Source: Eledone cirrhosa
Lineage: Eukaryota
DNA length: 64,000 nucleotides
Direction of reading: 5' to 3'
Assembly: GCA_964016885.1 (NCBI GenBank)
Contig: OZ024742.1
Location: 92,256,001 to 92,320,000 of the forward strand
A program made the position numbers and the translations under genes. The number at the start of each line of letters is the position of its first letter. Within the stretch, counting starts at the first letter, position 1. Below the pieces are notes generated by a model. The model worked only from the letters and a program-made list of their open reading frames with translations. It ran no database searches and had not been told where the DNA came from. Shown here piece after piece: positions 1 through 58,859 of this stretch.

Positions 1-71
1 CCAGTTCCTGTACACAGCTAAGTATTCTATAAGTCTCTAGCTGTGTCATTCTCGATGAAAGCACTGGATAT

Positions 72-115
72 GTAGTCCTGATGAATTCTAACAAGAATGA
101 AACGCGTAGACTTAC
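72..115 (+). ncRNA. Minimal type I hammerhead ribozyme, copy 1
   Basis: GUAGUC-CUGAUGA-AUUCU-aaca-AGAAU-GAAA-CGCG-UA-GACUUAC: intact core, 5-bp stem II, palindromic stem III, stem I with one bulge. Confidence 0.9.
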
Positions 116-382
116 TTCCCTTGCTTTTATCGAGAATCTAATTGTAATACGTGACGTATTCTATTCTATAGCGATTAGGTCTTCAAAATGTTTATTATAA
201 ACATACAGAATATTTTCGAATATTCTATGTCTATATTCACATATATATCGCTATTTCAGAGCATTTATTCCAATTTCTAATTTCTGCCGGACCGGCAACC
301 GCTCTTTCAAACCAGTTCCTGTACACAGCTAAGTATTCTATAAGTCTCTAGCTGTGTCATTCTCGATGAAAGCACTGGATAT

Positions 383-426
383 GTAGTCCTGATGAATTCT
401 AACAAGAATGAAACGCGTAGACTTAC
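383..426 (+). ncRNA. Minimal type I hammerhead ribozyme, copy 2
   Basis: Same sequence as 72-115, offset +311. Confidence 0.9.
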
Positions 427-693
427 TTCCCTTGCTTTTATCGAGAATCTAATTGTAATACGTGACGTATTCTATTCTATAGCGATTAGGTCTTCAAAAT
501 GTTTATTATAAACATACAGAATATTTTCGAATATTCTATGTCTATATTCACATATATATCGCTATTTCAGAGCATTTATTCCAATTTCTAATTTCTGCCG
601 GACCGGCAACCGCTCTTTCAAACCAGTTCCTGTACACAGCTAAGTATTCTATAAGTCTCTAGCTGTGTCATTCTCGATGAAAGCACTGGATAT

Positions 694-737
694 GTAGTCC
701 TGATGAATTCTAACAAGAATGAAACGCGTAGACTTAC
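694..737 (+). ncRNA. Minimal type I hammerhead ribozyme, copy 3
   Basis: Same sequence as 72-115, offset +622. Confidence 0.9.
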
Positions 738-857
738 TTCCCTTGCTTTTATCGAGAATCTAATTGTAATACGTGACGTATTCTATTCTATAGCGATTAG
801 GTCTTCAAAATGTTTATTATAAACATACAGAATATTTTCGAATATTCTATGTCTATA

Positions 858-910
<53 letters not shown>

Positions 911-2539
911 ATATATAATATATATATTACATATATGTGTGTACATGTGTTTATATTGAAGGTTGTTTCCTTTATATTTTCTACAAACAAAACAAACAGT
1001 ACACCAGTACACACTCTCTTCGTGAAAAAAACCTGCTTTTAAATTCTATAAATTTCCCTTAGTACTTCTTTACTTTAGTACCAATTAAATTTAGCATTTC
1101 CAAAATGTCTTGCAAATTACAACAACTGAAATTGCATATTCCGGTCACTAAATACCAGGTTGGATATAATTTGCATATATCGACGCCAATTAAAGACATT
1201 ATATATTACTTTTAGTAATGTTATAACTAGTTTGCACTCATATCAATGCAAAAACATTTATGCGTAAGATCTGGTTAAAGAAAGAGAGTAACTGCTTGCG
1301 CACTATTTCTATTGAATGTGTTTATGTGTGTTTCTTTGTATGTTTGTTACAAATCTTTCTATAAAATATTTGATTTTTTACATGCAGAGAGAGAAGAATA
1401 TTTGCTACATTGATTTGAATACGGTTGAAAAGAATGAGATTATATATGAATGTGTGAACTTCTTCCATTTGCTTCTGCTGCAGCTGTTATTATTGCCGTC
1501 ATTCTTCCTCTTCTTCTTTCCTGCCTCATTATCTCATGTTTTACTTCGCTCCGTACGTTGAGAAAGAAATCTTGATAGTTTGCCAGTTTCGGAACTATTT
1601 TGTTGTTTAGTATGTTGCCGAGATAACCATGACCCCAAAGAACTCGTCAGATCCCTTTTTAAGCCTCTTTGAGTTCATACCAATTCTTGAGAAAACAAGA
1701 AAAAGATAATTATTTGAAAATATCATTGAAAGTGGTATTCGGCCAACAGTTGATAGTGGAGGGAGGAAGTACAACCAGCAAGGGTGAGAATTTTTCCATT
1801 GAAAGCCTTTCCCTTCACACCTTTCACTGCCGACTTTCATCTTTTCCCAATCAACAACACAACAGCATTAGTAAAAATATTTACAACACATTTCTGAGGA
1901 ACAAAAACACCGAAGGTGAGAGGAAGATTAACAACAACATTTCCAGTGATAAGAGCAACAACGGCAGCAACAGCAACAATGCCACCCTAACAGATTAACA
2001 AGATGGCCAAAAACCACATTAAGCGACACTACATTACAGTCACTATGTCCATTGCGGTAGGCAATAAATGCATCTACGACAGTAGAAAAGGCGTAATGTT
2101 AGAATGGATCATCCGTCGGTTTCGACGATTAGAATCCAAATGTTCGATCAACTGAACGTTCTAACTTCAGTAATTATGCAGTATATCATTGCAGGTAGAA
2201 TCTCTAGATGTCCGGCTTTTGTGACCCTTTACAGAAAGGTGCACAAATGTGTATCTATTCAAGAATGAACGCAGTGTTTCTTTAAACATATGTATAAATA
2301 CATGGCCTTGATCTTTTGATGGGGTTTTGGGGACGCCGTCATGATATGCAACGTGTCTTGGGCATTTTAAACCTGGCCTCACAAAACCTTCAATTCAACC
2401 TTTTAACATTTCTGCCAATTCGCGGACATATAATTACATGCCAGCAAAATACTTTATAGTTGCGTCTAAGATGCTTTTGTATCTGTTTCTGTTGAAGTAT
2501 TGGGGTATATGTGTTCATGGAATAGTTTATTTGTATATA

Positions 2540-6155: not shown

Positions 6156-9100
6156 TCATCCCTTGAATCGCAAGAATGTTTTGCAAATTTTGAAGGGGCC
6201 AGCTATCGCAAACATTTGCAGACTATGAATTAGGGAGCTGCGCTCTTTGTCAGCAAATCCAAGTTCAGTCATACTTTGGTCCAAGTGGGTTGGTATATAA
6301 CCCGTAGCTCCAATAATGATGGGTATGAAGCTAAAGGTGTATCTTGGATACTGGATTTGTAAACTGCTCATCATTGGTCCGTAGATGTCCTCCTTCTCCT
6401 GAATTTTTCTGACAACGTTTACATCAAGTGGGCAGCTGATCTCGACAACAGAACACGTTTTCAATGTGTGGTCCCAAACAACAATATCAGGCCGGTTGTG
6501 CTTTAATTTGGTGGCAGTTTTTATTTTAGTGCCATCTGTCTCAATATATTCTTCCTCGTTTTCTGTTAACTTTGTTTTCCGAACTGCGTTCCAGATGGTT
6601 CTAGCTATCCCATCGTGTCTCATGGGGAGGTAGTAGCGAGATAACATTCTTTCGCAGCTGGCAACAATGTGGCTTACATCCTCGATCTTTGTTTTACATA
6701 GCCTACATTTATTGTCAGCTGATGGCCCTCCCCTTTTTTGCAGCAGATATTTGGTAGGGAGTTCTTGTTCCTGTATTGCATAGAGATATCCCTCAAGGTG
6801 TGATGTCATAAACTTGTCGGAACTCCATGCCAGGATTTTTGAGTGGTTTATCCCCTCTATGGTCTGTGTTTTACATCTCAAGTATCCATGCACAACTTTT
6901 TCTGTAAATTGGTCAATTTTTTCATCGTGTTTGAACATTGAATAGGATCTTCCGATTTCTCTGGGTGAGAGATTTATATTAGGCTTTATTCCATATCAGG
7001 CTTTATTCCAGATCAGTGGCTATTCTAATGATATTTTTTTTTCATGCTCATAAACCTGGGCAAGATGGTTGCCAACCTTTTTCCTCGGTTGAAGATGTTG
7101 CTTCAGTGTTACTATCCGGGTCTCATATGATGTTAATATGGATTTTAGACCCCGGCCACCATCCTTGCGTGAGAAGTATAGCCTATCCACATCACCATTG
7201 ATGTTAAAGTTCCCAGTAACACTGAGACGTTTGCGTGTTCTAACATACATCTCACTTAGTTCTTGCAATGACCAGTTCAGCAGGTCAAATGTTGGCGTTA
7301 GAATTGGCACAGCATAAGTATTGTGGGCAATGTATTTGTTGTACGCTGACAATTCTGATGACCATATTTTCTTTACTCTTCTGAGGTATTCAGTTCTGGT
7401 TCTCTCCTTATTTATGGGTCCATCATATCTGACATTCTCATCCTGTCCAAGATATCTGTAGTTGTCACCTGACTGTAGAGGTTGTATTGCCAAGCCGTTC
7501 ATCTCTAGATTTCTAGAGGAGGGCACAGTTCTTCCAAGTTTTACTGCCAAATATGCACACTTGGACTCACCAAATTTCATTTTGATGCCTGTTAAAAATT
7601 GTGTAATGAGGTCCAATTGTTTCTTGATGTCATTGATATTTGGCCCATACAACTTCAGGTCATCAACAAAGAAAAGATGGGATAAACTTCTGGACTCACT
7701 TCTTTGTCTACCTTGTTTCCTGAGTAGGTAAGATAGTGGATTTAGTGAGAGAACGAAGAGTAGCACTGACAAGCTATCACCCTAAAAGATGCCCTTCTGG
7801 TAATGTATCTTATCAGTCTTAACTTTCCCCTTCTCAACTCTAAGGATCAAATTGGTGTACCAGTTCCTGGTCAGACGTTCAACAGCAGCTACCAGTGGCT
7901 GTGGGACTTTGGCTAACTGTAAAGCCTTAACAATCCACCCATGAGGTACACTATCAAATGCTTTTTGATAGTCCAGCCACCCCACAGTCATGTTTCTGCG
8001 ATTCTTTGTTGTTTTTCTTGAATCATTTTATTAGTTAGTAGGTGATCTATACACCCCCCCCCCCTCTTTCCACCAGCTTGCTCAGGTGTTATGATGTTGT
8101 TGGTAGCACAGTGATCCTGTAAGAACAGGTTAAGGCACCCAGTATATAATTTATACATGATGTTTTGGCAGGCTATTGGGTGGTAATTTTTAGCAAGGGT
8201 GGTTTGGCTATTTTGGGGAATGAGGAGAGTAGTGGCAGTTGATAACCATCTGGGCAGTTCTTGTGTGCCTTTAATGGTTTCTGTAAACAGCCGTATGAGA
8301 TCTTGCCGATAGAAAGTGAAATTCTTCAACCAGTATCCTGTAATGAGGTCTGGGCCTGGTGATTTCCTATTCGACATTTTCTGTAGAGCTGTTTCCAGTA
8401 TTGACCCATCTATGTCATATTGTTTTGTCTGGACATGTTGGCAGTAGTCCTGTTCCAGTTCTTTTAGCCAATTAGTTTGTCTGTTGAATCCGTCATCCGT
8501 TTCCCATACAGATCTCCAGTAGTTCTTTTGAAGGGGTGTCATTTACAGAGATTGAGCTTTTGCCACCGAAGCTGCGATAAACTGATTTAGGATCTCTGGC
8601 AAACAATCTATTTAGCACTTGTCGTTTATGTGCTGTTGACTTATATTTTAGTCTTTCTGTTGAAGCTGTGAGTTGTTGTTTCAACTGGTGTAATTTGGCG
8701 TTTAAAGTTTTAAATTTTGTATCTCCAAGTCTCTCTAACTTTTTTTAGGTCTTCCTGGTGTCGTGTGAAGTTGCTCTCTATGTTGCATTTCATAACGACT
8801 GCGATGTGTGCGATACTTCGTCTCAGGGACAGAATTTTGCTTTTTAAATTTCGCATCCACGCTAGTTCAGGCTTTTTGTTTGTATCTTGATTGCGTGGTT
8901 TTAGATGTTTGTTATATGATAGCAATGTGACAGCTGAAACATATAACAAAATATTAAGCGTTTCAAATGTCGTTTCTACACCTTTAGATCGTATAGCCTT
9001 CAGATAATTGTCAGCTATTTCGTTCACCGCTTCCAATTCCAATTTAGTGGGCTCTTTACTGATTCTGGTGTTGTATGGTCTGTCACTCACATTAAGGCTG

Positions 9101-9627
9101 TGTATCTCTTGAAACATATCGTCCCATATCACTTGTAAGGTGTCCACAAGTTTTTGGTGTTCTGTTTGTACAGTAGAGTCATGAATTTCAGCCTCGTTGT
9201 TGATGTGGTGACAATTACTACTAGAGTTAGCTGACCATTCTTGCTGTTCTTCAGTGGAAGTGGGATGGATTTCAGCAAAATTGTTGGTGAGCTGTTCACT
9301 GTTAGATTTAGCTGGCCATTCTCTTTGTCTGTCAGTGGAGGTGGGGTGGTTGTCTACAAGGGCTGTTCTTGTAGTATCATTCAATTCCGTTAGATGTATC
9401 AATTTACATCTAATGATACGTTTTGCCTGTTCATTTAAATGCTTTGGAGAAAAGTCTAATTCTGGATGTTTGGAGTTCCATAAAGTTTTTAGCCTTTGCA
9501 TAAAACCGAACTTTTGTGGTTCAGATTGTTTGTATGCTTCATATAATTCTTTGTTAAGCTCGTAGCTCCACTGTATACAACGGTTGTAGTTGCGATTTGG
9601 TCGAAGGAGACTTGTACGTTTTGCCAT
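6156..9627 (-). pseudogene. Disrupted single ORF of the R4/Dong-like element
   Basis: Colinear ORF pieces 8710-9627, 8493-8684, 7988-8542, 7782-7991, 7020-7772, 6156-6938 separated by frameshifts or stops. Confidence 0.9.
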
Positions 9628-9802
9628 GATGAGTTCGTCTATTCACTAATATTTTGTATTTATTTTTCAAAATAGTCGATGATCTTCTTTAAAAGTTTCG
9701 ACAAAGATCTGTCAGAATCAAATTTAAAGTTATTCACAACTTGGGTAATATTTCTTTTCAGTTAGTTTTTAATTATCGTTTGAATCGAGAACAAAAAAAA
9801 AA

Positions 9803-12990: not shown

Positions 12991-13129
12991 TTTATTTTAC
13001 AGGTAAGCACAGACATGGGTGTGTCATTAAGGTGTGCACGACCTATGCATGAGGTGCCAGTTTCATAGGAATATGAGTGAAATTCGGTCGACGATGATTA
13101 CAGAAGCTTTGTATATATATATATATTTG

Positions 13130-13304
13130 TTTTGCAAGGTTTTTGATATGAAATCGTGTGTTGAAACAAATATTGTTATATTTGGGGAGGATCATATTGT
13201 TATAATATTGGCAGAAATAATCATAGAACACACTCACTGTAACAGTGAGTGTATTCTATGATTATTTCTGCCAATATTATAACAATATGATCCTCCCCAA
13301 ATAT

Positions 13305-13310
<6 letters not shown>
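13130..13310. mobile_element. Palindromic fragment of the Penelope terminal repeat between (TA)n runs
   Basis: Fold-back centred ~13241 (cactcactgtaacagtgagtg); arms homologous to 17845-17955 and 21010-21078. Confidence 0.85.
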
Positions 13311-13378
<68 letters not shown>

Positions 13379-17019: not shown

Positions 17020-17499
17020 AAATCAATATATTCAGACCCGAGGAGGGTGGGGCATGGTTTAAATCTCTAAAACACACCATCAGGTGTTCAAAGATGATGT
17101 GTGCTATGCTGAAATTAATGAAAATATGATTATGAAATGTTGCGACATTTAAAAATAATTTAAGATAAGTTATTCGTTTGTATCTTTTACATCGGTTTAT
17201 ATATGATTATATATGAAATTATTTACACAATGTCGCATATATATATTATTTTAGTTTTAACTCTATTGAAACTAGATTTTAGGAAATCAACTATATACAT
17301 ATATCATTTCTCATTTCTATTCTTGGTTATTTCTCATAATATATATATTATTATTACTATATATATATATATATATATATAGGAACGAGTAGGACCCCGA
17401 CGGCTGAGCTCAAGCCGTTTCAACGGCTAATTCTGGACTAAAATCATTTTAGTCCAGAATTAGCCGTCGAAACGGACCGAATAAATTAGATTACCGGTA

Positions 17500-17794
17500 T
17501 ATAAGACACAGAAGCGAAAAGCGAAAACCAACCAAACAGTGAGTGTGTTCTGTTATTAATTCTGGCAATATTACACAAGGCGGTGGATTGGCAGTATCGG
17601 TGGAGAGTCGGACGCCATGCTTTCCAGCATAGTTACGTCCCTTTACGATCTGAGTTCAAATCCCGCCGAGGTTGACTTTGCCTTTCATCCTTACGGGGTC
17701 GATAAAATAAAGTACCAGTAATGCACTGGATAATTGCTGGCCTTGTGCCAAAAGTAGAAACAAATATTACACAAATATGACCCTCCCCAAGTAT

Positions 17795-17800: not shown

Positions 17801-17834
<34 letters not shown>

Positions 17835-17866
17835 CGGCGATGAATTAGTTTTGCGAGGTTTTTTAT

Positions 17867-20545
17867 ATGAAATCGTGTGTCGAAACAGATATTGTTATAT
17901 TTGGGGAGGGTCATATTTGCGTAATATTGCCAGAATTAATAACAGAACACACTCATAATAATAGTAACAACCACAATGGTAGAAATAGCAGTAACAACAA
18001 CAATAACGGTGAAGTAAACAACAATACATCTAGCAATCATAACAATAATAATATTAATGCTAAGGATAGAAACAACAACAACCACCATGATAACAATAAT
18101 AGCAACACACACAACTATGACGATAGAAATAACGACAACCCCTTAGAGAAACTATTTTTCAACCCAGCTGACAAAACATATAAGATGGGTAATATCTATC
18201 CTACGAGGTTACCCTTTAATAAAAGAGTTTGCATACCACAACAAATAGATGACGAGACGGAGGCACAGTTCACCATAGCTAGAAATAAGATTAGACAAGT
18301 AGTAGACAGGTACACTATGAGACAGAGCAGACCAGAGGCCCAACAACTTGGGATAAAACCTGTAGAAGGCTTGGTTAGCCTCAAGCAGCGCACAAGGGAT
18401 GGTGAGGTAGTGTGTCTACCCACAGATAAGTCTGGTAGGATGTCAATAGATAGCATGCCGAACTACATCGAGGCAATGCAACCCCACATCACCAACACGA
18501 GCGAAGTTGCACAACTAACACACGATGGGAGAGAAAAAATCCTCAACGCTCACATGATGATGTGGACTGACATCCTAAAGCCAAGCAGACGCACTGCCAA
18601 CAACTTCCAGGCGTCTAACAATGGCATACCACCCTTGTATGGGCTCCGCAAAGACCACAAGACAGTCGACGACCCGACAATAGGACCACCAACAAGACCT
18701 GTATGCGGAGCTAATATAGCTAGCAACTACAGGATCTCCTACTTCCTCTCAATGGTTATACGCCCCATAATCAAGATGTCCCCAGATGTATGTGAAAGTA
18801 CAGAGGACCTCCCCAGCAGAATCAGTGAGTGCAACAAAAACAGGAGCCTATCCAACTGCATAATAGGCAGCATGGATGTGGTGTCACTGTACCCATCCAT
18901 TAACATTGATTTTGCTGTGAAAAGATGTGTGGAGATGATCATTGAGAGTGAGGTGGAGTTCTGCGACGTCGACACAGACGAACTGGGCCTCCTACTTAGA
19001 CTTACCTACGACACTGACTACCTAGACAGCCATGACCTTAGATGTTTCTGCCCTAGTAGACCTATAAGAGGTAGACCCCCCACCATAACCTCAATGGCTA
19101 AAAAGACTCCCATAGGAAGGTGGATTGGGTGGACCAAAGCTATACGGACCCCCCAAAACACTGATCAGGTAAGAAAAATGGTCGCACATGCAATAGGGGC
19201 TAGTATCAAAACTACCCTAAAGGGCCACATATTTAAGTTCAATGAGAAAATCTACACCCAAAATGAGGGAGCAGCCATCGGCGTCAGCATAGCTGGCGAT
19301 GTTGCCAACCTTTTCATGGTATGGTGGGAAAGGAGACTTAAAGATCTCCTTAATGAAAGCTCCATAGACCTCATCATGTACTCTCGTTATGTAGACGATA
19401 TCAATATAGTTATAAGAACACCCCCACTAGAGAGCACTAACAAGTTTGATTTAGAACGTAGCACGATGGAAAGCATCCAGCAGATAGCTAATTCCATACA
19501 CCAGAGTATAACTGTAACTATAGACTTCCCTTCCAAACACCCTAACAATAGACTACCTGTATTAGACACAGAACTCTGGATTAACACTATAGACGAGAGA
19601 GCCCAAATTCTCCACTCACACTATGCTAAACCCATGGCCTCCAAATACCTGATACTCAAAAACTCAGCAATGTCCAGTAGTGCTAAGTTTAATATTCTGA
19701 TCGCAGATTTGGTACGAGTGATGAAGAATGTGTCCAGCATGTGCGACCCAACAGAAATGGAAGGACACATCCAACACTTCATCAACCGCATGCAGTTCTC
19801 TGGCTACAACCAAAGAGACAGAGTCAGAGTATACGAAGGAGCCATGGAAAAGTATAAGACCCTCATAGAACTGGACATGAAAGGAATTTGCCCACTATAC
19901 AGGAGCAAATCATGGAATAGCTTAGATAGGGCTAGACATAAGATAGGGAAGGCCACATCATGGTACGACAACCAGAGATATCAGAGTGTCATGTTTGTGG
20001 ACGCCACCCCTGGAGGGAAATTAGCTAACCAGTGTAGAAAGGCCCTGAGAAAGACCCACTTAAAAATAAAGGTGGTAGAAAAGCCAGGAACCACCATAAA
20101 ATCCCTGATCAGCAAAACCTACCCTTTTAAGAAAACCCACTGTACCAATAGGAAATGTATCATATGTAAGGTGAACCCCCGGATAAACTGTAAAACTAGA
20201 AACGTAGTCTATAGCATAAGATGTACAGAGGGTACTTGCAGAAACACGACAACAACATACATAGGTGAGACAGCTCGTAGCATAGGTGAAAGGATAGACC
20301 AACACTGGGGGGAACTAAAAGGACGAAAAAACGGGTCAGTACTATACGAACATGCTAGACAACATCATGACGGTAACATAGACAACATAGAAATTAGAAT
20401 AATATCTAAACATAGGAATGACCCAGCAGATAGGCAAATCAGAGAGGCCAGTGAAATAGAAATTAGAAGACCAAAGCTAAACAGAAAGAATGAGTGGAAC
20501 AACAACAACACCCAAACAAACAACACTGACCTAAGAGAAGTATAA
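17867..20545 (+). CDS. Penelope-type reverse transcriptase / GIY-YIG endonuclease, uninterrupted 892 aa (first ~30 aa derive from the inverted repeat)
   Basis: TDKSG, LYGLRKDHK, RPV, MDVVSLYPSI, EGAAIG, YSRYVDDI, LPVLD; linker CTNRKCIIC; VVYSIRC...YIGET...R...H...H...E...N. Confidence 0.95.
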   Translation: MKSCVETDIVIFGEGHICVILPELITEHTHNNSNNHNGRNSSNNNNNGEVNNNTSSNHNNNNINAKDRNNNNHHDNNNSNTHNYDDRNNDNPLEKLFFNPADKTYKMGNIYPTRLPFNKRVCIPQQIDDETEAQFTIARNKIRQVVDRYTMRQSRPEAQQLGIKPVEGLVSLKQRTRDGEVVCLPTDKSGRMSIDSMPNYIEAMQPHITNTSEVAQLTHDGREKILNAHMMMWTDILKPSRRTANNFQASNNGIPPLYGLRKDHKTVDDPTIGPPTRPVCGANIASNYRISYFLSMVIRPIIKMSPDVCESTEDLPSRISECNKNRSLSNCIIGSMDVVSLYPSINIDFAVKRCVEMIIESEVEFCDVDTDELGLLLRLTYDTDYLDSHDLRCFCPSRPIRGRPPTITSMAKKTPIGRWIGWTKAIRTPQNTDQVRKMVAHAIGASIKTTLKGHIFKFNEKIYTQNEGAAIGVSIAGDVANLFMVWWERRLKDLLNESSIDLIMYSRYVDDINIVIRTPPLESTNKFDLERSTMESIQQIANSIHQSITVTIDFPSKHPNNRLPVLDTELWINTIDERAQILHSHYAKPMASKYLILKNSAMSSSAKFNILIADLVRVMKNVSSMCDPTEMEGHIQHFINRMQFSGYNQRDRVRVYEGAMEKYKTLIELDMKGICPLYRSKSWNSLDRARHKIGKATSWYDNQRYQSVMFVDATPGGKLANQCRKALRKTHLKIKVVEKPGTTIKSLISKTYPFKKTHCTNRKCIICKVNPRINCKTRNVVYSIRCTEGTCRNTTTTYIGETARSIGERIDQHWGELKGRKNGSVLYEHARQHHDGNIDNIEIRIISKHRNDPADRQIREASEIEIRRPKLNRKNEWNNNNTQTNNTDLREV

Positions 20546-20825
20546 ATAAATAAGTAAATTAAATTAAATAAAATAAGATAAATAAATACATACACAAGCA
20601 CATAAACACACACTAGTCACCCAGCAGACAACACTATACACACTAGTCACACATCACACATCACACATAACACTATACACACACGCAAACGCATGCGCAA
20701 AGAAGACAAAATAAAATAAGATAAACAAACAAGCAAATAAATAAATAAATATATAGACAGACTGAACAAAAAAAAAAAAAAAAATGGCGTAGACATACAA
20801 CACAACAGGAGGAACAATGAATATA

Positions 20826-20868
20826 ACACCACTGACGATGTTGCAGATGTGCAACGAAAGATTTATGT
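20826..20868 (+). ncRNA. Hammerhead motif in the Penelope 3' terminal repeat
   Basis: CUGACGA-u-GUUGCA-gaug-UGCAAC-GAAA-GAUU-UA; quasi-palindromic stem III; stem I very short. Confidence 0.7.
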
Positions 20869-21099
20869 AAACTATATATATATGTGTTTGTCTATATTGT
20901 ATCTGTATTATTTTTGACCGCCGGTCAGTCAATGGCAACATTGAGGACCGAGTAAGTTAGATCGCAGATATATATATATAAAAGACAGCGAGAAGCGAAA
21001 ACCAACCAAACAGTGAGTGTGTTCTGTTATTAATTCTGGCAATATTACGCAAATATGACCCTCCCCAAATATAACAATATATATATATATATATGTATA

Positions 21100-22447
21100 T
21101 ACATCCCTTCCCTCCCCTCTTCTCCTCCTCCCCCCTCCTTATCACACGCACACACGCACCCACTTACACCACCCACCCCACACGCAACTAACATCACTAA
21201 CACCCCCCAACCCCACGCACACGTACCCACACACCCTCGTACACCACCAACTCTACACACCCTACCACCACTAACCCCCACTCACACCTGCATTCCACCC
21301 CTCCCCACCTCCCGTATACTAACACCCACTAACACCTCTTCACCAAACTACACACACACACCAGTACACCACACTCCCTCCATAGAACCACACACACCCT
21401 TCTCTCCCCGCTCCACCCACACCCCCGCTCCACACTCACTCATCCCACTAACACCCCTACTAATACACACACACACACACACACACACACCCTCCTCACT
21501 CCAACTCTCACACCTACCCATCCTCGCCCCCCTACCATTCCACCGACTGCTGCTATGCCCTTCTGACCACCTCCCAGCACCAACAGACCACAGCACTCCC
21601 ACTGCTGACCACTTCCTGTTGCGCGCGCACCCCACATCTCTCCTCTTCCGACCACCGCCTCATGGATTACCCACACGCAGAAATTGACTTATAACCAAAT
21701 CTCCAAACATCCTTGGAACTTACCAACTTTTCAACCATCCTCTTACGTCATCACCTATATAACTCACCCACACACACACCCCAAAAAATGTTTTTCTCCA
21801 CACGCCACCCACACCTACAACACGCTTAAACCCCACACACACGTGCTTCCCACCACATATTTACGCCCTCAGCCTCCTGATTCCTCTCCCCCTACCCCCC
21901 TATCCACACACGCACAGACACTCCGACCCACAAAAACACCCCCCACACACACCTTTTCCTGAACATGCAACCCCGTTCTTCCCCCAACCCTCACTTTCAC
22001 ATACACACACACACACACGCACACCTACACACACACACCACCTTCAGCCCTCCCCGCTCGGACACCCCGTCTCCCTCTCCCCACTCCACCCGCCACCACC
22101 CCTACTCCCCCCACACCCTTCCACCACCTGTTTACCCCCCTTTTAATTTCAGTTTATTTTGATCATGCCTTTATTTTTAAATGTTCTCATTCCTTGTATT
22201 TTGATCATGCTTTATTTTTATTTTTTATCTTTATTTGTTAATTTTTCATTCGCACCGTTTCCTTTCGCTATATGTCTCTCCACCACCCCCCTACACACCT
22301 TTTGAACTCTGTTCCCACACACTTCTCACCTGAGGAAGGGCTTATGCCCGAAATGTCGTCCCCCACCTACCCCCCACTCTCCTGAGCGTGAATTTAATAA
22401 ACATTTATTGTACTGCCTCTCTGTTCTGTCCCTGTTCAAATTGTTCA
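21100..22447 (+). mobile_element. C/A-rich insertion ending in a hammerhead-like motif and AATAAA; probable 3' part of a second Penelope-like family
   Basis: Bounded by (TA)n; CUGAGGA-a-GGGC-uuau-GCCC-GAAA-UG-UC at 22330-22357; AATAAA near 22396. Confidence 0.5.
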
Positions 22448-22448
22448 T

Positions 22449-22483
<35 letters not shown>

Positions 22484-22577
22484 GTATATATATGTATATA
22501 TATATATGTATAGATATATGTATGAGCGGGAATTGTCCGTGTGTTTTTGTTTGTGTTTTTCTTACATTTTCTAAATA

Positions 22578-22702
<125 letters not shown>

Positions 22703-22762
22703 ATATATATATGTAAATATATACATATATACATATATATATATATATGTATATAAATATAT

Positions 22763-23377
22763 AGCGGCGATGAATTAGTTTAGCGAGGTTTTTTATATGA
22801 AATCGTGTGTCGAAACAGATATTGTTATACTTGGGGAGGGTCATATTTGCGTAATATTGCCAGAATCAATAACAGAACACACTCACTGTTTGGTTGGTTT
22901 TCGCTTCTCGCTGTCTTTTATATCTGCGATCTAACTTACTCGGTCCTCAATGTTGCCATTGACTGACCGACGGTCAAAAATAATACAGATACAATATAGA
23001 CACAAACACATATATATAGTTTACATAATTTACATAAATCTTTCGTTGCACATCTGCAACATCGTCAGTGGTGTTATATTCATTGTTCCTCCTGTTGTGT
23101 TGTATGTCTACGCCATTTTTTATTCAGTCTGACGATGTTGCAGATGTGCAACGAAAGATTTATGTAAATTATGTAAACTATATATATGTGTTTGTGTCTA
23201 TATTGTATCTGTATTATTTTTGACCGTCGGTCAGTCAATGGCAACATTGAGGACCGAGTAAGTTAGATCGCAGATATAAAAGACAGCGAGAAGCGAAAAC
23301 CAACCAAACAGTGAGTGTGTTCTGTTATTGATTCTGGCAATATTACGCAAATATGACCCTCCCCAAGTATAACAATA
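22763..23377. mobile_element. Large fold-back made only of the Penelope terminal repeat, with two hammerhead cores in opposite orientation
   Basis: 22763-23130 is an inverted copy and 23129-23377 a direct copy of the 20760-21078 region; cores at 23062-23068 (-) and 23129-23135 (+); (TA)n flanks. Confidence 0.9.
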
Positions 23378-23446
23378 TATATATATATATATATACATAT
23401 ATACATATATACATATATACATATAAATATATATATATATACATAT

Positions 23447-23578
<132 letters not shown>

Positions 23579-23702
23579 ATATCTTATAAGAATCTTAAGG
23601 AAAGGAAAGGGATGAGGATAGGTTCTTGAAATCTGTTATGTTTGATAAGTAAACAAGAAATGAATAAATAAAAGCCGGAAGGAGAAAATACTCGACATTA
23701 TT

Positions 23703-23885
23703 GGTGGATTGGAGTATCTGTAGAGGGTCGAACGCCATGCTTCCTAGCATAGTTACGTCCCTTTACGGTCTGAGTTCAAATCCCGCCGAGGTTAACTTTG
23801 ACTTTCATCCTTACAGGGTCGATAAAATAAAGTACCAGTAATGTACTGGATAATTTATGGCCTTGTGCCAAAAGTAGAAACAATT
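23703..23885 (+). mobile_element. SINE family A
   Basis: A/B boxes and Deu/Nin-like core. Confidence 0.85.
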
Positions 23886-24149
23886 ATTGTTAAAACCACG
23901 AAAGACCACCCCGTCCCCTCGACTTTCTCTCCCTATCACCCACCTCTCTGTCCTGTGCCTTTTTCTTATCCTTTCATTTTTCTTCTAAATTTGGAGAAAT
24001 GGCGGTCCGCTTGAGGAGGGAGCCCGTGAGGTGTTTTGTTATTGACTAAGGAAGACCCAACGAAAATCCTACGAATACCAGTTCAGTTGATCACAAGATG
24101 ATGGTGGCTCAGATGGGATTTAAATTGAAAACACGAACAAGAAGCCAAA

Positions 24150-24325
24150 GGACGCCATGCTTTGCAGCAAAGAGTTACGGCTCTTTATGGTCTGAGTTCA
24201 AATCCCGCCGAGGTTAACTTTGCCTTTCATCCTTACGGGGTCGATAAAATAAAGTACCAGTAATACACTGGTTAATTGCTGGCCTTGTGCCAAAAGTAGA
24301 AACAATTATTATTATTATTATTATT
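24150..24325 (+). mobile_element. SINE family A, 5'-truncated, with (ATT)n tail
   Basis: B box, core and tail gccttgtgccaaaagtagaaacaattattatt. Confidence 0.85.
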
Positions 24326-24335
24326 TTGAAATTTG

Positions 24336-24606
24336 TGGAGGCATGGGCTCAGTGGTTAGGGTATCGGGCTCATAATCGCAGATACTTTACTTCGCATAAA
24401 TTTAATTCTCTCATAAGGGAAAATGCGTTGTTCCTCTAATTCAAAGATCAAGCTTTATCACACACTGAATCACATTGAATCTTTCTAAAAATATGTTAAG
24501 CATGCATGCTTCTGGAATGCTCAGCCACTTCCACGTTAATTTCAGGAGCAGGCTCTTGTTCCGTTGATGGCATCGACTGAATCACCCGCCGTCTGGAACA
24601 ACGGAG
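24336..24606 (+). mobile_element. SINE family B, diverged
   Basis: Head ggctcagtggttagggtatcggg; 3' part tgctcagccacttccacgttaatttc matches 62975-63000. Confidence 0.65.
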
Positions 24607-26969
24607 GTTCAAAATCAACGAAAATTCCTATAATAGGCAACCGACCATAAATGTTTGAGAGTTTTGGTAATCTTTTTATCGACTTCACAGAAATGAACGG
24701 CTAGCTCCACGTTGAAGGAATTTGTTTTTGAGAATGTATGACATTGATTACCTTATACACTTGAATATAGATTTCATGATCAAATTTTTACTTAAGATAC
24801 ATAGTTGCACTATACACATGTATTTCTCGAGGGGTAGTTTGCATACATTTCCTGTGATTATAATCTACCTGGTAGATACATGCTCATTGTACCGTTGATT
24901 AACTTTTATAGTACTTGTAAATTCCTTTGATCTGAGTTTAGAAATCTAGATTCTTTCTTTCTATTGCTACATGAAGAGCAGAAAATCATTCATTATATAT
25001 GCTGCTTAATATATATATAAATACATTAGTTAAATGAAGAGTTTAAAATGATTTTTATTTTCTTTCGCAAATTTGAACATTCAAAAGTTAGATGGATATA
25101 TTCTACTGAACGAGTGTGAAATATATATTCAGCCAAGTGGATTGTATACAAGATTATCACAACTATTCCAGGTCTGGCCCCTATTTCAGACCTGCCGACC
25201 TCTAAAAACGCAAACGGGGATGTTCATGAAAAAAAGTGCCCCAAAACGGGGAGAAATGAGGAAAAATGGAAAGATTTTACATGATGAAAACTATACCTAT
25301 TTTCACAAGAGAAGACATCTCTCAGTCACCCCCAAAGTGGGTGGGAGATCTCCCCGTCGGACGGGGAGAGCTGACAGGTCTGCTATTCCCTAAGTATGAC
25401 TGAATGGTTACGAAGATCGTTTTACAATCATGAAGTCCCGAAGAAGTTCGTTTCGTAATTATGATGACATTGGTTCGATCCCATTGCGTGGCATTTTTGG
25501 CATGAGTCTTTACCATAGACCCAGGACACGCAAGCCTTGTTTGTCATTGGGTAGAGGAAAAATTAAATGGAAACCCAACGCGTGAATTGTATCTATAATT
25601 GTATCTGTAATTGTATCTATAGTTGTATCTATAATTGTATCTATTCTTTTATCATGTACAATATCATGCGGATTCGGCTTGGAAACTCCGTTAAGGGTGC
25701 ACGTGTCTTTGGAATACTCAACTTATCAAACGTTAATTCATAAATTATATTAATTTGATCGAACAACATAATGCTCATCGTCGAACCTGACAGAAGATCT
25801 ATCACTCATCCTCGCCTCAAAATTATCCGACCTCATACGCACAGAATTACATCTGTCCTGTGACTCAGTAAGGTATATATGCACCGGATTCGAGCTCATG
25901 ACACATGCATTACTTGTCTAATAATTTATTCACTGATTTATTTATCCTTCGCTTCTCTTTCTCTCATTTCCTATCCTTATTACCGAACGTCCGGTACCAA
26001 TGCTCCCCAGTGGCTCCTCTTCCTCACCTTGACTGTGCACTCCGCTAGCATTCTTATCGTCTAATTATAGCTTTAATTAAGCTATACACAAAATAACAAC
26101 AAACGTTGATTAGTTGAACTGTTGTTTATTGCATGACAAATATTTACAAACGTAAGAAAGAGTGATCTACACCTAAATCCCAGGTTTTCTTACCCCACTC
26201 AGGGGAAGTGCCTTCTTTATTCACCAGTTCAATATCAAGTCTACAATAAAATGTCCCTCTTCAACCGTTCGTATTTTAGGAACTCGCGGGCAATTCTCTA
26301 CACAATCCCTGATGTCATCATTTCAGCGTTTCTTCAGTTTTCTTCTCGATCTTCTACCATCAATGCCTCCCTTCAGAATGTGGATAGAGAGGTCCTAAGC
26401 CTGATGATATAGCAGATGTATTGCTGCTTTCGCTTCCTTGTAGTTGCGATCATCTGTATCTCCGTTCCTATCTCCCCCAGAACCGACTCATTAGATTTGT
26501 GGCCCACCCTTATAATCTATTTACTTTACCTCCAGTGAAATATAGCGGGTATATACATGACAGGTGCTTGTGTATATATGAATAGGTATATGTATGTGTA
26601 CATATATATGAGAATGTATGTGTGGATATGTGTTCATGTGACTGCACGATATATATAGGTGTGTGTGTGAATATGTATGTTTGTGAATATGTATGTATAT
26701 ATGAACGCGAGTATGTATGTGTGAGTATATGTGAGTGTGTGTGTATATATGTGAATGTGTGCGCGTGTATGTGTGCGCGTGTATGTGCGTTCGTGTGTGT
26801 GACACCAATAAAATGATGAAATGAGACAAGGAAATGAATGACTGTTTTATTCACCCCCTGCCAACAAATCCCAATGACATCAATTCATAACAACAGAGTT
26901 AACATAGCTCACATTTTATTGCTATTCAAACCGGGGGCTACACCCCAGTGAGCCAATGAGGCAAACGCA

Positions 26970-27470
26970 AATCTCCAGGTCTCTACAGTCTACCCTACGA
27001 ATTTTACGTAGCAATGCCGGACTTGTTCTCCGGTCTCCTGGAAGCGGTCTACTGCAACTGGCAGCAGAACGGGAGAATTCCCAGTTCTGGGACCAAGGGC
27101 GTAGTCACGTTAGTCAGGAAGGACGAGAATAAGGGGGATGACATAGGCAACTTCCGGCCCATAACTCTGCTAAACACAGAGTTACAGATTTTGGCCAAGG
27201 TGTTGGCAAAGAGGCTGGCGCTTGTCGTCGAAAACCTGCTGGGAGAAGCGCAGACATGCGCAATCCCGACCAGGTCCATACACGACAACCTCCACCTCAT
27301 GCGATACATCATAGAGAGGGTAGGGTGTAAACCCGGCTTCGGTGGGGCCCTGATCAACTTGGATCAGTCTAAGGCTTTCGATAGGGTTGGCCATCGTTAC
27401 GTGGATGCGGTGCTCGAGGCGGCAGGCTTCGGACCTGTGTTCAGGGGCTGGATTGCTGCAATGCACAGCA
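26970..27470 (+). pseudogene. L1/Tx1-like LINE reverse transcriptase fragment
   Basis: KGVVTLVRK...NFRPITLLNTELQILAKVLAKRL...QTCAIPTRSIHDNL...LDQSKAFDRV. Confidence 0.85.
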
Positions 27471-47872: not shown

Positions 47873-48809
47873 ATGAAGCCGAGCTAGACAAAATCGTTGT
47901 CTGACTTCTTATAATTAATGTATATATATCATTATTTGATATAGAAATGGCATCTACAGGACTAGAACTGTTTCATTCGGATGAAATCATCAGGATTTCA
48001 TATGAATGGACCAGAGAATTCATTTCTATATTAAATAATAATTTTTACAATCTACTGATATATAGAGAACCCTTTTTAATTGTGGTTACCCCCGATTTTA
48101 CTCTACATATATATATATATAGCTTAATATGTTGTAACCTTATTTTAATGTTGGTTCACCAACTTGAGCACTCAGTGGGTAGATGGGTCCGTTTAAGTAT
48201 AGTTACACATTTGGTGTTACACCATGGTCGGTTTCCCTCATAAGAAGTGTGTAATATTAATGATAAGTATCATCATCAAGTATATTCAAGTGTGACGCGC
48301 GTTCTGCTATTGATCAACTAAGGGTTCAATCTGTATCGATCGGTCTCGACTCTGGAATCAAAATCTCATCAGACACATGGTTCGTTAATGATGGGAAATA
48401 TCCGTGTACACCTTTAAATCAAAAAAACCCTCCAAAATCTCAATCACTTAATGATGACACTCAGACGCCATGTTCCTACTATGAGACGGCTGAAATTCTT
48501 GTGGTAAGATGGTATTTAGGACTGATGTGAGATTTGAGGTAAGCGGGTCCTCTTACTTCTGTGGCCTTCATCATCAAGTGATCCTTACTACAAGGTTAGG
48601 GTTAGGGTTACTACTGGGTTACTACAGGGTTACTACAGGGGAGGGGGAGAAGATTTCATCACATACTTACTGTTGTTGTTGTTATTTTCTTTCGTGAAGT
48701 GTTTGTAGTCTTTATTTATTTATTTGACAGAGATCAACCGGAAATCACGGTATCTTATCTTTCATTACCCTTCTCTTGTTTTCTTTCCTTCTTTGTCTAT
48801 TTCTCAATA

Positions 48810-50876
48810 TCATCATCACCACCTCCTTCTCGTCCACCTCATCATCATCACCACCACCTCCTTCTCGTCCACCTCATCATCATCATCACCACCTCCTTCT
48901 CGTCCACCTCATCATCATCATCACCACCTCCTTCTCGTCCACCTCATCATCATCATCACCACCTCCTTCTCGTCCACCTCATCATCATCATCACCACCAC
49001 CTCCTTCTCGTCCACCTCATCATCATCATCACCACCACCTCCTTCTCGTCCACCTCATCATCATCATCACCACCTCCTTCTCGTCCACCTCATCATCATC
49101 ACCACCACCACCTCCTTCTCGTCCACCTCATCATCATCATCACCACCACCTCCTTCTCGTCCACCTCATCATCATCACCACCACCTCCTTCTCGTCCACC
49201 TCATCATCATCATCACCACCACCTCCTTCTCGTCCACCTCATCACCATCATCACCACCTCCTTCTCGTCCACTTCATCATCATCACCACCACCACCTCCT
49301 TCTCGTCCACCTCATCATCATCACCACCACCTCCTTCTCGTCCACCTCATCATCATCACCACCACCTCCTTCTCGTCCACCTCATCATCATCACCACCAC
49401 CTCCTTCTCGTCCACCTCATCATCATCACCACCACCTCCTTCTCGTCCACTTCATCATCATCACCACCACCACCTCCTTCTCGTCCACCTCATCATCATC
49501 ACCACCACCTCCTTCTCGTCCACCTCATCATCATCATCATCACCACCTCCTTCTCGTCCACCTCATCATCATCACCACCACCTCCTTCTCGTCCACCTCA
49601 TCATCATCACCACCACCTCCTTCTCGTCCACCTCATCATCATCACCACCACCTCCTTCTCGTCCACCTCATCATCATCACCACCATCATCCTCATCATCC
49701 TCACCACCACCGCTCTCCACCTCCTCCACCTCATCGTCATCATCACCACCATCACTCGCCTCCTCCACCTCATCGTCATCATCACCACCACCGCTCTCCA
49801 CCTCCTCCACCTCATCGTCATCATCACCACCACCGCTCTCCACCTCCTCCACCTCATCGTCATCATCACCACCATCGCTCGCCTCCTCCACCTCATCGTC
49901 ATCATCACCACCACTGCTCTCCTCCTCCACCTCATTGTCATCATCACCATCACCGCTCTCCTCCTGCCCCTCATTGTCATCATCCCCACCATCGCTCTCC
50001 TCCTCCCCCTCATCATCATCATCACCACCATCGCTCGCCTCCTCCACCTCATCATCATCATTACCACCATCATCACCACCATCATCACCACCATCATCAC
50101 CACCATCATTACCACCATCATCACCACCATCATCACCACCATCATCACCACCACCATCACCACCATCATCACCACCACCATCATCATCACCACCATCATC
50201 ACCACCATCATCACCACCATCATCACCACCATCATCACCACCATCATCACCACCATCATTACCACCATCATCACCACCATCATCACCACCATCATCACCA
50301 CCACCATCACCACCATCATCACCACCACCATCATCATCACCACCATCATCACCACCATCATCACCACCATCATTACCACCATCATCACCACCATCATCAC
50401 CATCATCATCACCACCATCATCACCACCATCATCATTAACCATCATCACCACCATCACCACCACCATCATCACCACCATCATTACCACCATCATCACCAC
50501 CATCATCACCACCATCATCATCATTACCACCATCATCACCACCATCATCACCACCATCATCACCACCATCATCATCATTACCACCATCATCACCACCATC
50601 ATCATCATTACCACCATCATCACCACCATCATCACTATCATCACCACCATCATCACCACCATCATCACCACCATCATCACCACCATCATCACCATCATCA
50701 TCACCACCATCATCACCACCATCATCACCACCATCATCACCACCATCATCATCATCACCACCACCATCACCACCATCATCACCACCATCATCACCACCAT
50801 CATCACCACCATCATCACCACCACCATCACCACCATCATCACCACCATCATCACCACCATCATCATCCACATCATT
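48810..50876. repeat. CAT/CAC-triplet minisatellite with graded higher-order units
   Basis: Unit cacctccttctcgtccacct(cat)n(cac)n to ~49680, variant units to ~50050, then mixed (CAT/CAC)n. Confidence 0.97.
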
Positions 50877-56924: not shown

Positions 56925-57321
56925 TATACTATATTATATTATATTAGGTATAAATGAAAGTTGTAGCTGCTATAAGGCAGATACCATTCGAATTGTTTGA
57001 GGCAGTCACTCAATGGTACGAAGAGTTAATATAAGTGCGACACTATTCTTATATCGACTATGTGTACGTTGCCACCCTATATAAGCACAACAACGACAAA
57101 TACGAACAAGTATACCACTAATCTAACTATATATATAAAGAACGATTAACAAAGATTTTAATCAAAACACTTAATTGCTTTATGACCATTTCGTTAGACT
57201 TACAAGAATATTCCATTCCTCTTAGAATAAATTCCTCAGAATACATCTGGCATGTCTAAGATCTCCGGTGAAAGAGTGAAAAACGTTGAAACGTAGACAT
57301 ATCAGGTATATATTAATTTAG

Positions 57322-57470
57322 GGCAGTATCGGTAGAGTTACGGCCCTTTTCGTTCTGAGTCAAATCCTGCCGAAGTTAACTTTTCTTTTCATCCTTACGG
57401 GGTCGATACAATAAAGCACCAGTAATGCACTGGGATATTTACTGGCCTTGAGCCAAAAGTAGAAACAATT
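57322..57470 (+). mobile_element. SINE family A (internally deleted head)
   Basis: Core and tail match the consensus. Confidence 0.8.
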
Positions 57471-57614
57471 ATTTGTATTTAATCGATTCTGAGGAATTTA
57501 TTCTAATAGAAATTAAATATTCTTGTTAGTCTAACAAAAAAGCTGTAAATCAATTAAAAGCTTTAAAATCTTGATAATCTTTGTTCCTTATATATATATA
57601 TATATATATATATT

Positions 57615-57758
57615 TATTTATTAAAATAACAGTTTAAGCAAAGAATCGGTGCTTTCACCCTTAACGGGATCTTCTGAAACTCAGAGTTTCAGAGGATCCC
57701 GTTAAGGGTGAAAGCAGCGATTCTTTGCTTAAACTTTAATCTGTTATTTTAATAAATA
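57615..57758. repeat. Palindrome formed of two divergent variant-core hammerhead motifs
   Basis: Centre ~57683; plus arm AGUUU-CAGAGGA-uCCC-guuaa-GGGu-GAAA-GCA...UGC-UU-AAACU. Confidence 0.85.
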
Positions 57759-57845: not shown

Positions 57846-57929
<84 letters not shown>

Positions 57930-57937
57930 TATATATA

Positions 57938-58393
57938 TGAATTAGAACCCTGTAACCATTAAGCTCTAAGTATAAAGTACAAATAAATACTGAGCCGATT
58001 AGCAATATATAGTAAGAAACACAGTAAACCGTGTGTCTAAAATTACAAGGGTTGATAAACCACATATGCTTGAAATATTTAACCAAGAAACAGACAGGAT
58101 GACAAAATGAAAATAAAGATATATTATCATAATACAAACCGCCTCAATAACCATTATATCTCTCGGACAGATTATCCCTAATCTGTTTCGCCCTGAGTGT
58201 GTTTGTAACAGATAATCCTGGGCTTCATCAGCGAGAGATTGCAATTAAATGTCACAAACACTATTTGCCAACGTTCACACAGAAAGATGAATTTATCACC
58301 TCGTGCGCCGCCAGTCAAACGTGGTAAGCGCGTATAGAACAGAAATAACAGTCCAACACGCACAACTTAATAGCTCATCCTGTAAGAGAGCCG

Positions 58394-58395
<2 letters not shown>
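57938..58395 (-). mobile_element. ~460-bp non-coding cassette in (TA)n carrying an intact hammerhead
   Basis: (TA)n on both sides; tgaattagaaccctgtaa repeated at ~57938 and ~58431. Confidence 0.7.
58158..58239 (-). ncRNA. Canonical type I hammerhead ribozyme, GUC cleavage site
   Basis: Minus strand: AUCUCUCG-CUGAUGA-a-GCCC...GGGC-GAAA-CAGAUUA-ggga-UAAUCUG-UC^CGAGAGAU; 8-bp stem I, 7-bp stem III. Confidence 0.93.
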
Positions 58396-58434
<39 letters not shown>

Positions 58435-58474
58435 TTAGAACCCTGTAAAAAAAAATATATATATATATATATAT

Positions 58475-58859
58475 AGTGAAAGAATGAAGAGTAACATGAT
58501 TGGCTGTACAACAAGGGGCTTTATGAAATAAAGCCTCTTGTACAGCCAACCATGTAACTCTTCATTATTTCACTTGGATTGGCAGTATTGGTAGAGGGTC
58601 GGACGCCATGCTTTGACGCATAGAGTTACGGCCCTTGCCATTCTGAGTTCAAATCCCGCCAAGGTTAACTTTGCCTTTTATCCTTACGGGGTCGATAAAA
58701 TAAAGTACTAGTAATACACTGCAATAACCCGCATAGGAATTCCGCGAACTCGCTGCCTAACTCTTGTTGAGTCAAACAAAGCCGTACGTTAAAACTATCC
58801 ACGACACAGAGTACTCACAACCTCTAACTGGATTACCTATAACGATAACTTGTTATCCC

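Follow-up and report, generated by a model that had tools for sequence, protein, structure and literature searches.

A 469-nt noncoding, multicopy unit with an (AT)6 spacer was found in the window (the whole 64-kb stretch of DNA that was analysed), and the cassette that carries it is probably a non-LTR retrozyme copy mobilised by a Penelope-like element (PLE). Except for an array with two hammerheads, every testable feature of metazoan non-LTR retrozymes was found in the cassette family. The preliminary description had called the cassette retrozyme-like, and this reading was borne out by a short noncoding unit of low GC content (34%), a type I hammerhead, a head-to-tail arrangement, dispersal in multiple copies and the presence of a PLE. 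The unit had only two frames beginning with ATG (42 and 51 aa). A tRNA search of the window gave no match, and candidate Pol III promoter boxes (A box at 57997, B box at 57949) were rejected because 106 of 1,000 shuffles also matched.

Table 1. Features of the cassette and of the PLE in the window
Feature	Position	Strand	Basis
Left (TA)n tract, closing in a short A-run (57923-57926); putative target	57846..57926	.	Sequence
Complete 469-nt repeat unit, composed of (AT)6 spacer and 457-nt body	57927..58395	-	Length equals head-to-tail period in public contigs
(AT)6 run; AA precedes it on the plus strand, matching the family junction; 3' end of the copy in the ribozyme sense	57927..57938	-	Sequence compared with contig junction
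First 18-mer, unit end; 3' arm of local hairpin 57969-57942	57938..57955	-	Sequence, contigs/reads
Putative optional 66-nt extension between two 3' ends	57939..58004	-	Run X1 depth step
Internal ATATATA, candidate second 3' end, just 3' of AC-rich stem-loop (58038-58015)	58005..58011	-	Run X9 reads
Hammerhead of type I; additional A at 58224, loop 2 of 26 nt, stem III of 7 bp, possible outer stem I of 5 bp	58149..58246	-	Sequence and fold
Hammerhead stem I, 8 bp	58239-58232 / 58165-58158	-	Sequence
Hammerhead CUGAUGA core	58231-58225	-	Sequence
Hammerhead stem II, GCCC/GGGC	58223-58220 / 58193-58190	-	Sequence
Hammerhead GAAA	58189-58186	-	Sequence
Hammerhead stem III, 7 bp, GGGA loop	58185-58179 / 58174-58168	-	Sequence
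Hammerhead UC before the cut	58167-58166	-	Sequence
Hammerhead possible outer stem I, 5 bp	58246-58242 / 58153-58149	-	Fold
Predicted 11-bp helix, 5' tail (58260-58250) with loop 2 (58210-58200)	58200..58260	-	Predicted duplex
(AT)18 between unit and restart; (AT)6 in family	58396..58431	.	Sequence, contigs
Second 18-mer, last bases of preceding unit	58431..58448	-	Sequence, contigs
A7 plus (TA)10: right junction, putative right part of target tract	58449..58475	.	Sequence
Neptune/Nematis-type PLE, between (TA)n runs	17834-21080	+	

An identical 18-mer was present twice in the window (57938 and 58431), its copies 493 bp apart with a TA run between them, as had been described earlier. With the TA included, the two ends of the cassette shared 53 bp at 96% identity. 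The left end read AA(AT)6G, which matched the family junction, and the window copy amounted to ∼1.07 units, i.e., one unit plus an overlap of ∼31 nt made up of AA, the AT run and a further 17 bases. Folding of the ribozyme strand as a circle gave a z value of -3.9, with 0 of 60 shuffles as stable, and the opposite strand gave -1.6. The local hairpin at the unit end had a predicted energy of -7.9 kcal/mol and was absent from the whole-circle fold.

Inspection of the 64-kb window located a type I hammerhead on the minus strand of the cassette, with a predicted cut between 58166 and 58165. The 8-bp stem I, the intact core, the GCCC/GGGC stem II, the stem III with its GGGA loop and the cut all lay where the preliminary description had placed them; its term "canonical" needs qualifying for the extra A, the 26-nt loop 2 and the absence of an Rfam call. 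The motif matched the conserved core CUGANGA / GAAA / UH, plus one extra base between A9 and G10.1, a known variation that occurs in the hammerheads of PLEs and in some canonical ones (PMC4209133). In a search with a full type I descriptor, the window gave a single match, at this hammerhead, and 300 block-shuffled windows gave none. No match to the Rfam hammerhead families reached a gathering score in the window; at the cassette hammerhead, HH9 scored 15.6 bits against a gathering score of 52 (E 1.1). The other 22 Rfam matches by E value around the locus were rejected, being far under their gathering scores. Among the 39 variant positions listed for the copies, a single one was located in the core and stems (51 positions) and 38 elsewhere (406 positions), a borderline difference (Fisher p 0.051) in a tally resting on 40 of 106 variant rows, unphased. 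The sole listed core or stem variant affected stem I at its last pair. Loop 3 varied among copies, as did the extra base.

Folded alone (58145-58250), the three hammerhead stems, with stem I open, had probabilities of 0.89 to 1.0, and the outer stem I had a probability of only 0.1 to 0.25 in the window copy. In longer, nested folds of the whole unit, the probability of stems I and II was near 0, and imposing the hammerhead fold cost 6.7 kcal/mol. In these nested folds, the 5' tail paired with loop 2 in an 11-bp helix that displaced stems I and II. The predicted duplex had an energy of -11.9 kcal/mol, and a helix of at least 11 bp was obtained with 52 of 5,000 shuffled tails. Insertions in loop 2 that were listed among the copies lay outside 58200-58210. 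Three loose-end consensuses covering the 5' tail were compared by eye: 9 or 10 of the 11 pairs were kept in two, the helix was lost in one, and none of the three had a compensatory change in it. This helix could be a blocker of the ribozyme or a pseudoknot that coexists with the hammerhead; in the full-length RNA, it probably either forms a pseudoknot by which stems I and II are docked or restrains the ribozyme. In the account of pseudoknotted hammerheads by Perreault et al. (PMC3088659, 2011), pairing of the stem I and stem II regions is predicted in about 40% of representatives. The cassette resembles these in the regions that would pair and differs, as far as that account extends, in that its helix is long (11 bp) and would be equally able to block the ribozyme.

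Four of 11 listed public runs (X1, X4, X6 and X9) were aligned to 57930-58400 and gave 300 contigs, 8 contigs, 4 contigs and 546 reads, respectively. A head-to-tail joint from 58398 to 57930, with a period of 469, was detected in two of the four (X4 and X1). In X4, it was contained in one contig with 75 and 88 nt on either side. In X1, it was contained in two contigs whose shorter side was 27 nt (under the 31-nt bar) and whose summed depth, 435.6, was all of the depth of the bin 58378-58393. No such joint was found in X6 or X9, the reads of X9 being cut at the AATT site at 57940. The order at the family junction was unit end, (AT)6 and unit start, and the spacer was equally long in runs of two organism labels, in de Bruijn contigs that are unable to show long AT spacers and lose rare forms, so that (AT)6 is possibly over-represented. 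In each of the four runs, the 18-mer was covered and joined the body without a break. Since the 18-mer was continuous with the body and the joint ran through (AT)6, the AT run was template-borne and a target-site duplication was rejected. The tandem form with internal TA for which other genomic copies were to be checked was thus found. The earlier proposal, copying of slightly more than one round of a circular or tandem template that itself contains (TA)n, stood with respect to the ∼1.07 units and the template-borne AT run but not to the unit size; the period of 469 nt in other copies changes the predicted circle from ∼490 to 469 nt. Neither a contig spanning the whole unit nor an array with two hammerheads was present among the contigs of these runs, which were too short to show two.

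Varied flanks among the 300 X1 contigs and 546 X9 reads indicated that the family is multicopy and dispersed. As a rough estimate, the data suggest that junctions number in the tens and partial copies in the hundreds to thousands, where the X1 figures are depths and not copy numbers and are compared with one 4.9-kb contig at a depth of 6.65. The summed depth in X1 was ∼2,400 to 2,900 at 57939-58004 and 20,000 to 27,000 at 58010-58057, an approximately 10-fold rise between 57993 and 58010. Mixed TA-rich loose letters (agreement 0.63) preceded 58005 in 45 X9 reads, at a position that is not an AATT site. X9 read ends at 57940, 58044, 58246 and 58290-58293 were set aside as library cuts, as they coincided with the four AATT sites of the stretch. 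We infer that the 58005 region may be a second, commoner 3' end and that 57939-58004 may be an optional tail resembling a PLE tail. Alternatively, the depth step could come from related families that have only the middle part in common; three X1 contigs departed at 58011 into other sequence. One X6 contig (57965-58078) was a short truncated copy beside AT. In an X6 contig aligned on 57930-57994, the terminal part was linked with a body other than that of the unit, suggesting a 3' module common to several families. Three X9 reads contained an opposite-strand joint (58089/58359). Pattern scans gave 0 and 1 matches in metagenome contigs and 5 in viral contigs, and none of the six loci aligned to the cassette. 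In three of the viral contigs (L004-L006), an identical hammerhead-like core with an extra A and a long GC-rich stem II was found at about 1001-1049 (+), shortly upstream of an apparent start codon.

A potential helper was present in the window in the form of a Neptune/Nematis-type PLE, which had an inverted terminal piece with a tail, an open frame of RT and GIY-YIG type and, within its terminal repeat at 20832, a minimal hammerhead core. The RT match was weak (Pfam E 4e-4, under the cut-off). A CX4CxxC linker and a GIY-YIG-type end were also identified, the latter from Atlas matches of 0.95 to 0.97 to clusters with 13 to 18% GIY-YIG members. Craig et al. (PMC8557442, 2021) use such a linker to mark Neptune/Nematis and hypothesise that the CX2-5CxxC form causes the (TA)n bias of Neptune and Naiad. 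Inverted-plus-direct pieces of the terminal repeat of the same PLE were found at 22764-23378, 13125-13336 and 17474-17578, mostly in (TA)n. Comparison of the cassette with the PLE terminal repeat detected no overall similarity (scores of 20 to 22, against shuffle maxima of 23 to 26). The tailed end of the PLE and the cassette end adjoining (TA)n had the 9-mer CTAATTCAT in common, with a null frequency of 0.5% for a comparison made post hoc; a 14/16 match between the cassette and the PLE tail was rejected, being inside the shuffle range. The PLE is the type of helper present and not necessarily the helper. At 6159-9642 (-), inspection by eye picked out broken frames of a non-LTR retrotransposon, whose motifs were RT-like and restriction-endonuclease-like.

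Mobilisation of the unit would begin with transcription of tandem copies, followed by hammerhead cleavage of the multimers into monomers that are perhaps circularised. A Penelope-like RT/GIY-YIG protein would nick a (TA)n tract, and cDNA synthesis would start at either of two internal sites where A and U alternate. The template, a circle or else a multimer left uncleaved, would then be copied once round, in this case to ∼31 nt beyond the start, and the inner AT run may have grown by slippage from 6 to 18 units after insertion. The cleavage junction was intact in the middle of the cassette, which excludes a cleaved linear monomer as template and leaves a circle closed by re-ligation or a multimer that had not been cleaved. 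The data fit the circle and the multimer equally. An association of retrozymes with PLEs and with cDNA of more than unit length has been reported (PMC7229834, PMC4209133, 10.64898/2026.07.22.740005), and the circle as cDNA template is a published model.

How (TA)n is selected was considered separately. The preliminary description had proposed a "homing" sequence, under which pairing of RNA with target would guide priming at (TA)n; we regard this as possible but tentative. In a fuller and rather doubtful form, AU-alternating runs would anneal to a nicked (TA)n primer in a telomerase-like manner and set the start of a Penelope-type RT, the same would apply to a second array and to the PLE of the window, and the helix between the 5' tail and loop 2 would silence the ribozyme in the circle that serves as template. 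The pairing proposal agrees with the finding that the family ends fell on template runs of alternating AT, namely the two longest of the unit (12 and 7 nt) among four runs of at least 5 nt. The second array, of 311 bp, and the shorter end of the PLE stopped where their own templates had 9-of-10 and 4 nt of alternating AT, respectively. The target repeats found next to hammerheads in endonuclease-less PLEs count in favour of pairing as well. On balance, we consider it somewhat probable that the AT runs are left over from a stretch of target tract that was captured between two tandem copies and carried along since, and that (TA)n is picked by the PLE endonuclease alone, with priming that involves no pairing. 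Such capture is compatible with a PLE-mobilised retrozyme and opposed to homing. It is favoured by the PLE of the anole, which begins reverse transcription at a site nonhomologous to the cut DNA and cuts ATT (PMC11167929), and by the linker of the window PLE, of the type tied by hypothesis to (TA)n bias (PMC8557442). The A-runs at both junctions also speak for it, as does an end that, where it adjoins (TA)n, seems to absorb nearby AT bases and is ambiguous by a few bases. The AA kept beyond (AT)6 at the left junction counts on the same side; from this AA it follows that the run was copied and not merged into the target. Against capture stand the coincidence of both family ends with the two longest alternating runs, the similar stopping points of the 311-bp array and the shorter PLE end, and the equal spacer length in runs of two organism labels.

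The 311-bp tandem array occupied 1-870 (+), with 2.8 copies that were 99% identical, and was a second, unrelated retrozyme. Each of its units had a minimal type I hammerhead core with a palindromic stem III and a circle z value of -4.4, and the array ended in (AT)n where the unit has a near-perfect 10-nt AT run. A 2-kb CAT/CAC-rich higher-order tandem array with periods of 9 to 111 was present at 48809-50875.

Three other origins of the cassette were weighed against a single copying event from a retrozyme template. It is improbable that the 18-mer at this locus arose in the same tract by a second priming event that aborted, or is what an older copy truncated to 18 bp has left, and that (AT)18 is target DNA. 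The inner run of 18 units, compared with 6 in the family, would fit such an event, and short truncated copies beside AT do exist, as in the X6 contig; PLE insertions are also often complex (PMC8557442). However, the order of unit, AT run and 18-mer is exactly that of the family junction, the two 18-mers are identical, and AT runs lengthen by slippage. That the cassette is a truncated pseudo-LTR of an autonomous PLE and not a free-standing retrozyme is very unlikely: all of the X1 depth at the unit 5' end runs into the 3' end of the unit itself and not into an ORF, the hammerhead has a full stem III unlike the minimal motifs of PLEs, and no RT-GIY-YIG ORF lies near the cassette, although PLEs are characterised by a tail-like double end, a (TA)n target and an additional base between 9 and 10.1 (PMC4209133) and one X6 contig links the terminal part to a different body. 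An ordinary target-site duplication comprising the 18-mer and the AT run, suggested by the near identity of the two ends and by the sometimes long duplications of retrozymes (PMC7229834), is scarcely credible given that contigs or reads of all four runs carry the 18-mer joined to the body and that the X4 contig extends 88 nt beyond the junction.

As a probable retrozyme, the cassette was compared with known systems. It resembles the metazoan non-LTR retrozymes described by Cervera and de la Pena (PMC7229834, 2020) and by Li, Clavereau and Pollet (10.64898/2026.07.22.740005, 2026) in its noncoding unit, which is poor in GC, a few hundred bases long and furnished with a single type I hammerhead, its head-to-tail arrangement together with dispersed near-monomers, its structured circle and its co-occurrence with a PLE. 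It differs from those accounts in that the unit is closed by (AT)6 and sits in (TA)n, with two ends at AT-alternating runs, and in its predicted masking or pseudoknot helix, most metazoan circles being predicted to have the ribozyme free. The 7-bp stem III differs from that of most animal hammerheads, which have 1 to 2 bp (PMC4209133). Cleavage was lacking for eight of nine predicted Xenopus retrozymes (10.64898/2026.07.22.740005). The word "microsatellite" is absent from the main text of the 2020 retrozyme paper (PMC7229834) and occurs once, in another sense, in the available text of the 2026 paper (10.64898/2026.07.22.740005). A retrozyme with an internal microsatellite spacer or with (TA)n-anchored double ends was not found in the texts and passages of openly accessible papers that the search covered.

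PLEs of the Neptune/Nematis and Naiad clades and their nonautonomous tandem derivatives, such as MRC1, are likewise reported to have a (TA)n bias, partial tandems and an optional tail at one end (PMC8557442). The hammerhead in a terminal repeat is a likeness to the Neptune/Nematis elements, the Naiads being described there as having none. The cassette differs from these elements and from MRC1, as they are presented in that paper, in having no ORF, a full and not a minimal hammerhead, and a tail of 66 nt as opposed to 30 to 40. In the Poseidon PLE of Anolis (PMC11167929, Frangieh et al. 2024), two internal RT starts define the tail, an AC-rich stem-loop lies near the start, and the target is AT rich, all of which resemble the cassette. 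Purified PLE protein is reported there to prime in vitro with no homology, and on uncleaved RNA, in contrast to the coincidence of the cassette ends with target-like AT runs. The endonuclease-less PLEs Athena and Coprina (10.1101/2021.04.23.441226) offer a further likeness, as their retroelement RNA has a copy of the target repeat (reverse-complement telomeric) beside a hammerhead. These elements are described as attaching to telomere overhangs, whereas the cassette lies in internal (TA)n and encodes no protein.

A 2020 review states that retrozyme repeats show no conserved motif pointing to a helper (PMC7761336), and the microsatellite bias of PLEs has been named as unexplained (PMC8557442). 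In the present family, the ends are defined, the spacer is fixed and the double end is of PLE type, and its genome also contains a candidate type of helper. Two questions are thereby made directly testable, namely whether the template is a circle or a multimer and whether (TA)n is targeted by pairing or by protein. If pairing were to operate, animal retrozymes would gain the helper-recognition and priming signal that reviews call missing; if the AT run is a relic, the family would be one more retrozyme family with an unusual hammerhead.

Other repeats surround the cassette in this window of microsatellite-rich animal DNA. Inverted repeats and long hairpins were present beside the locus at 57128-57598, 57615-57758 and 58475-58574. 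SINE-like copies were found nearby at 57334-57479 and 58575-58727, and the commonest short repeat of the window may resemble octopus SINEs.
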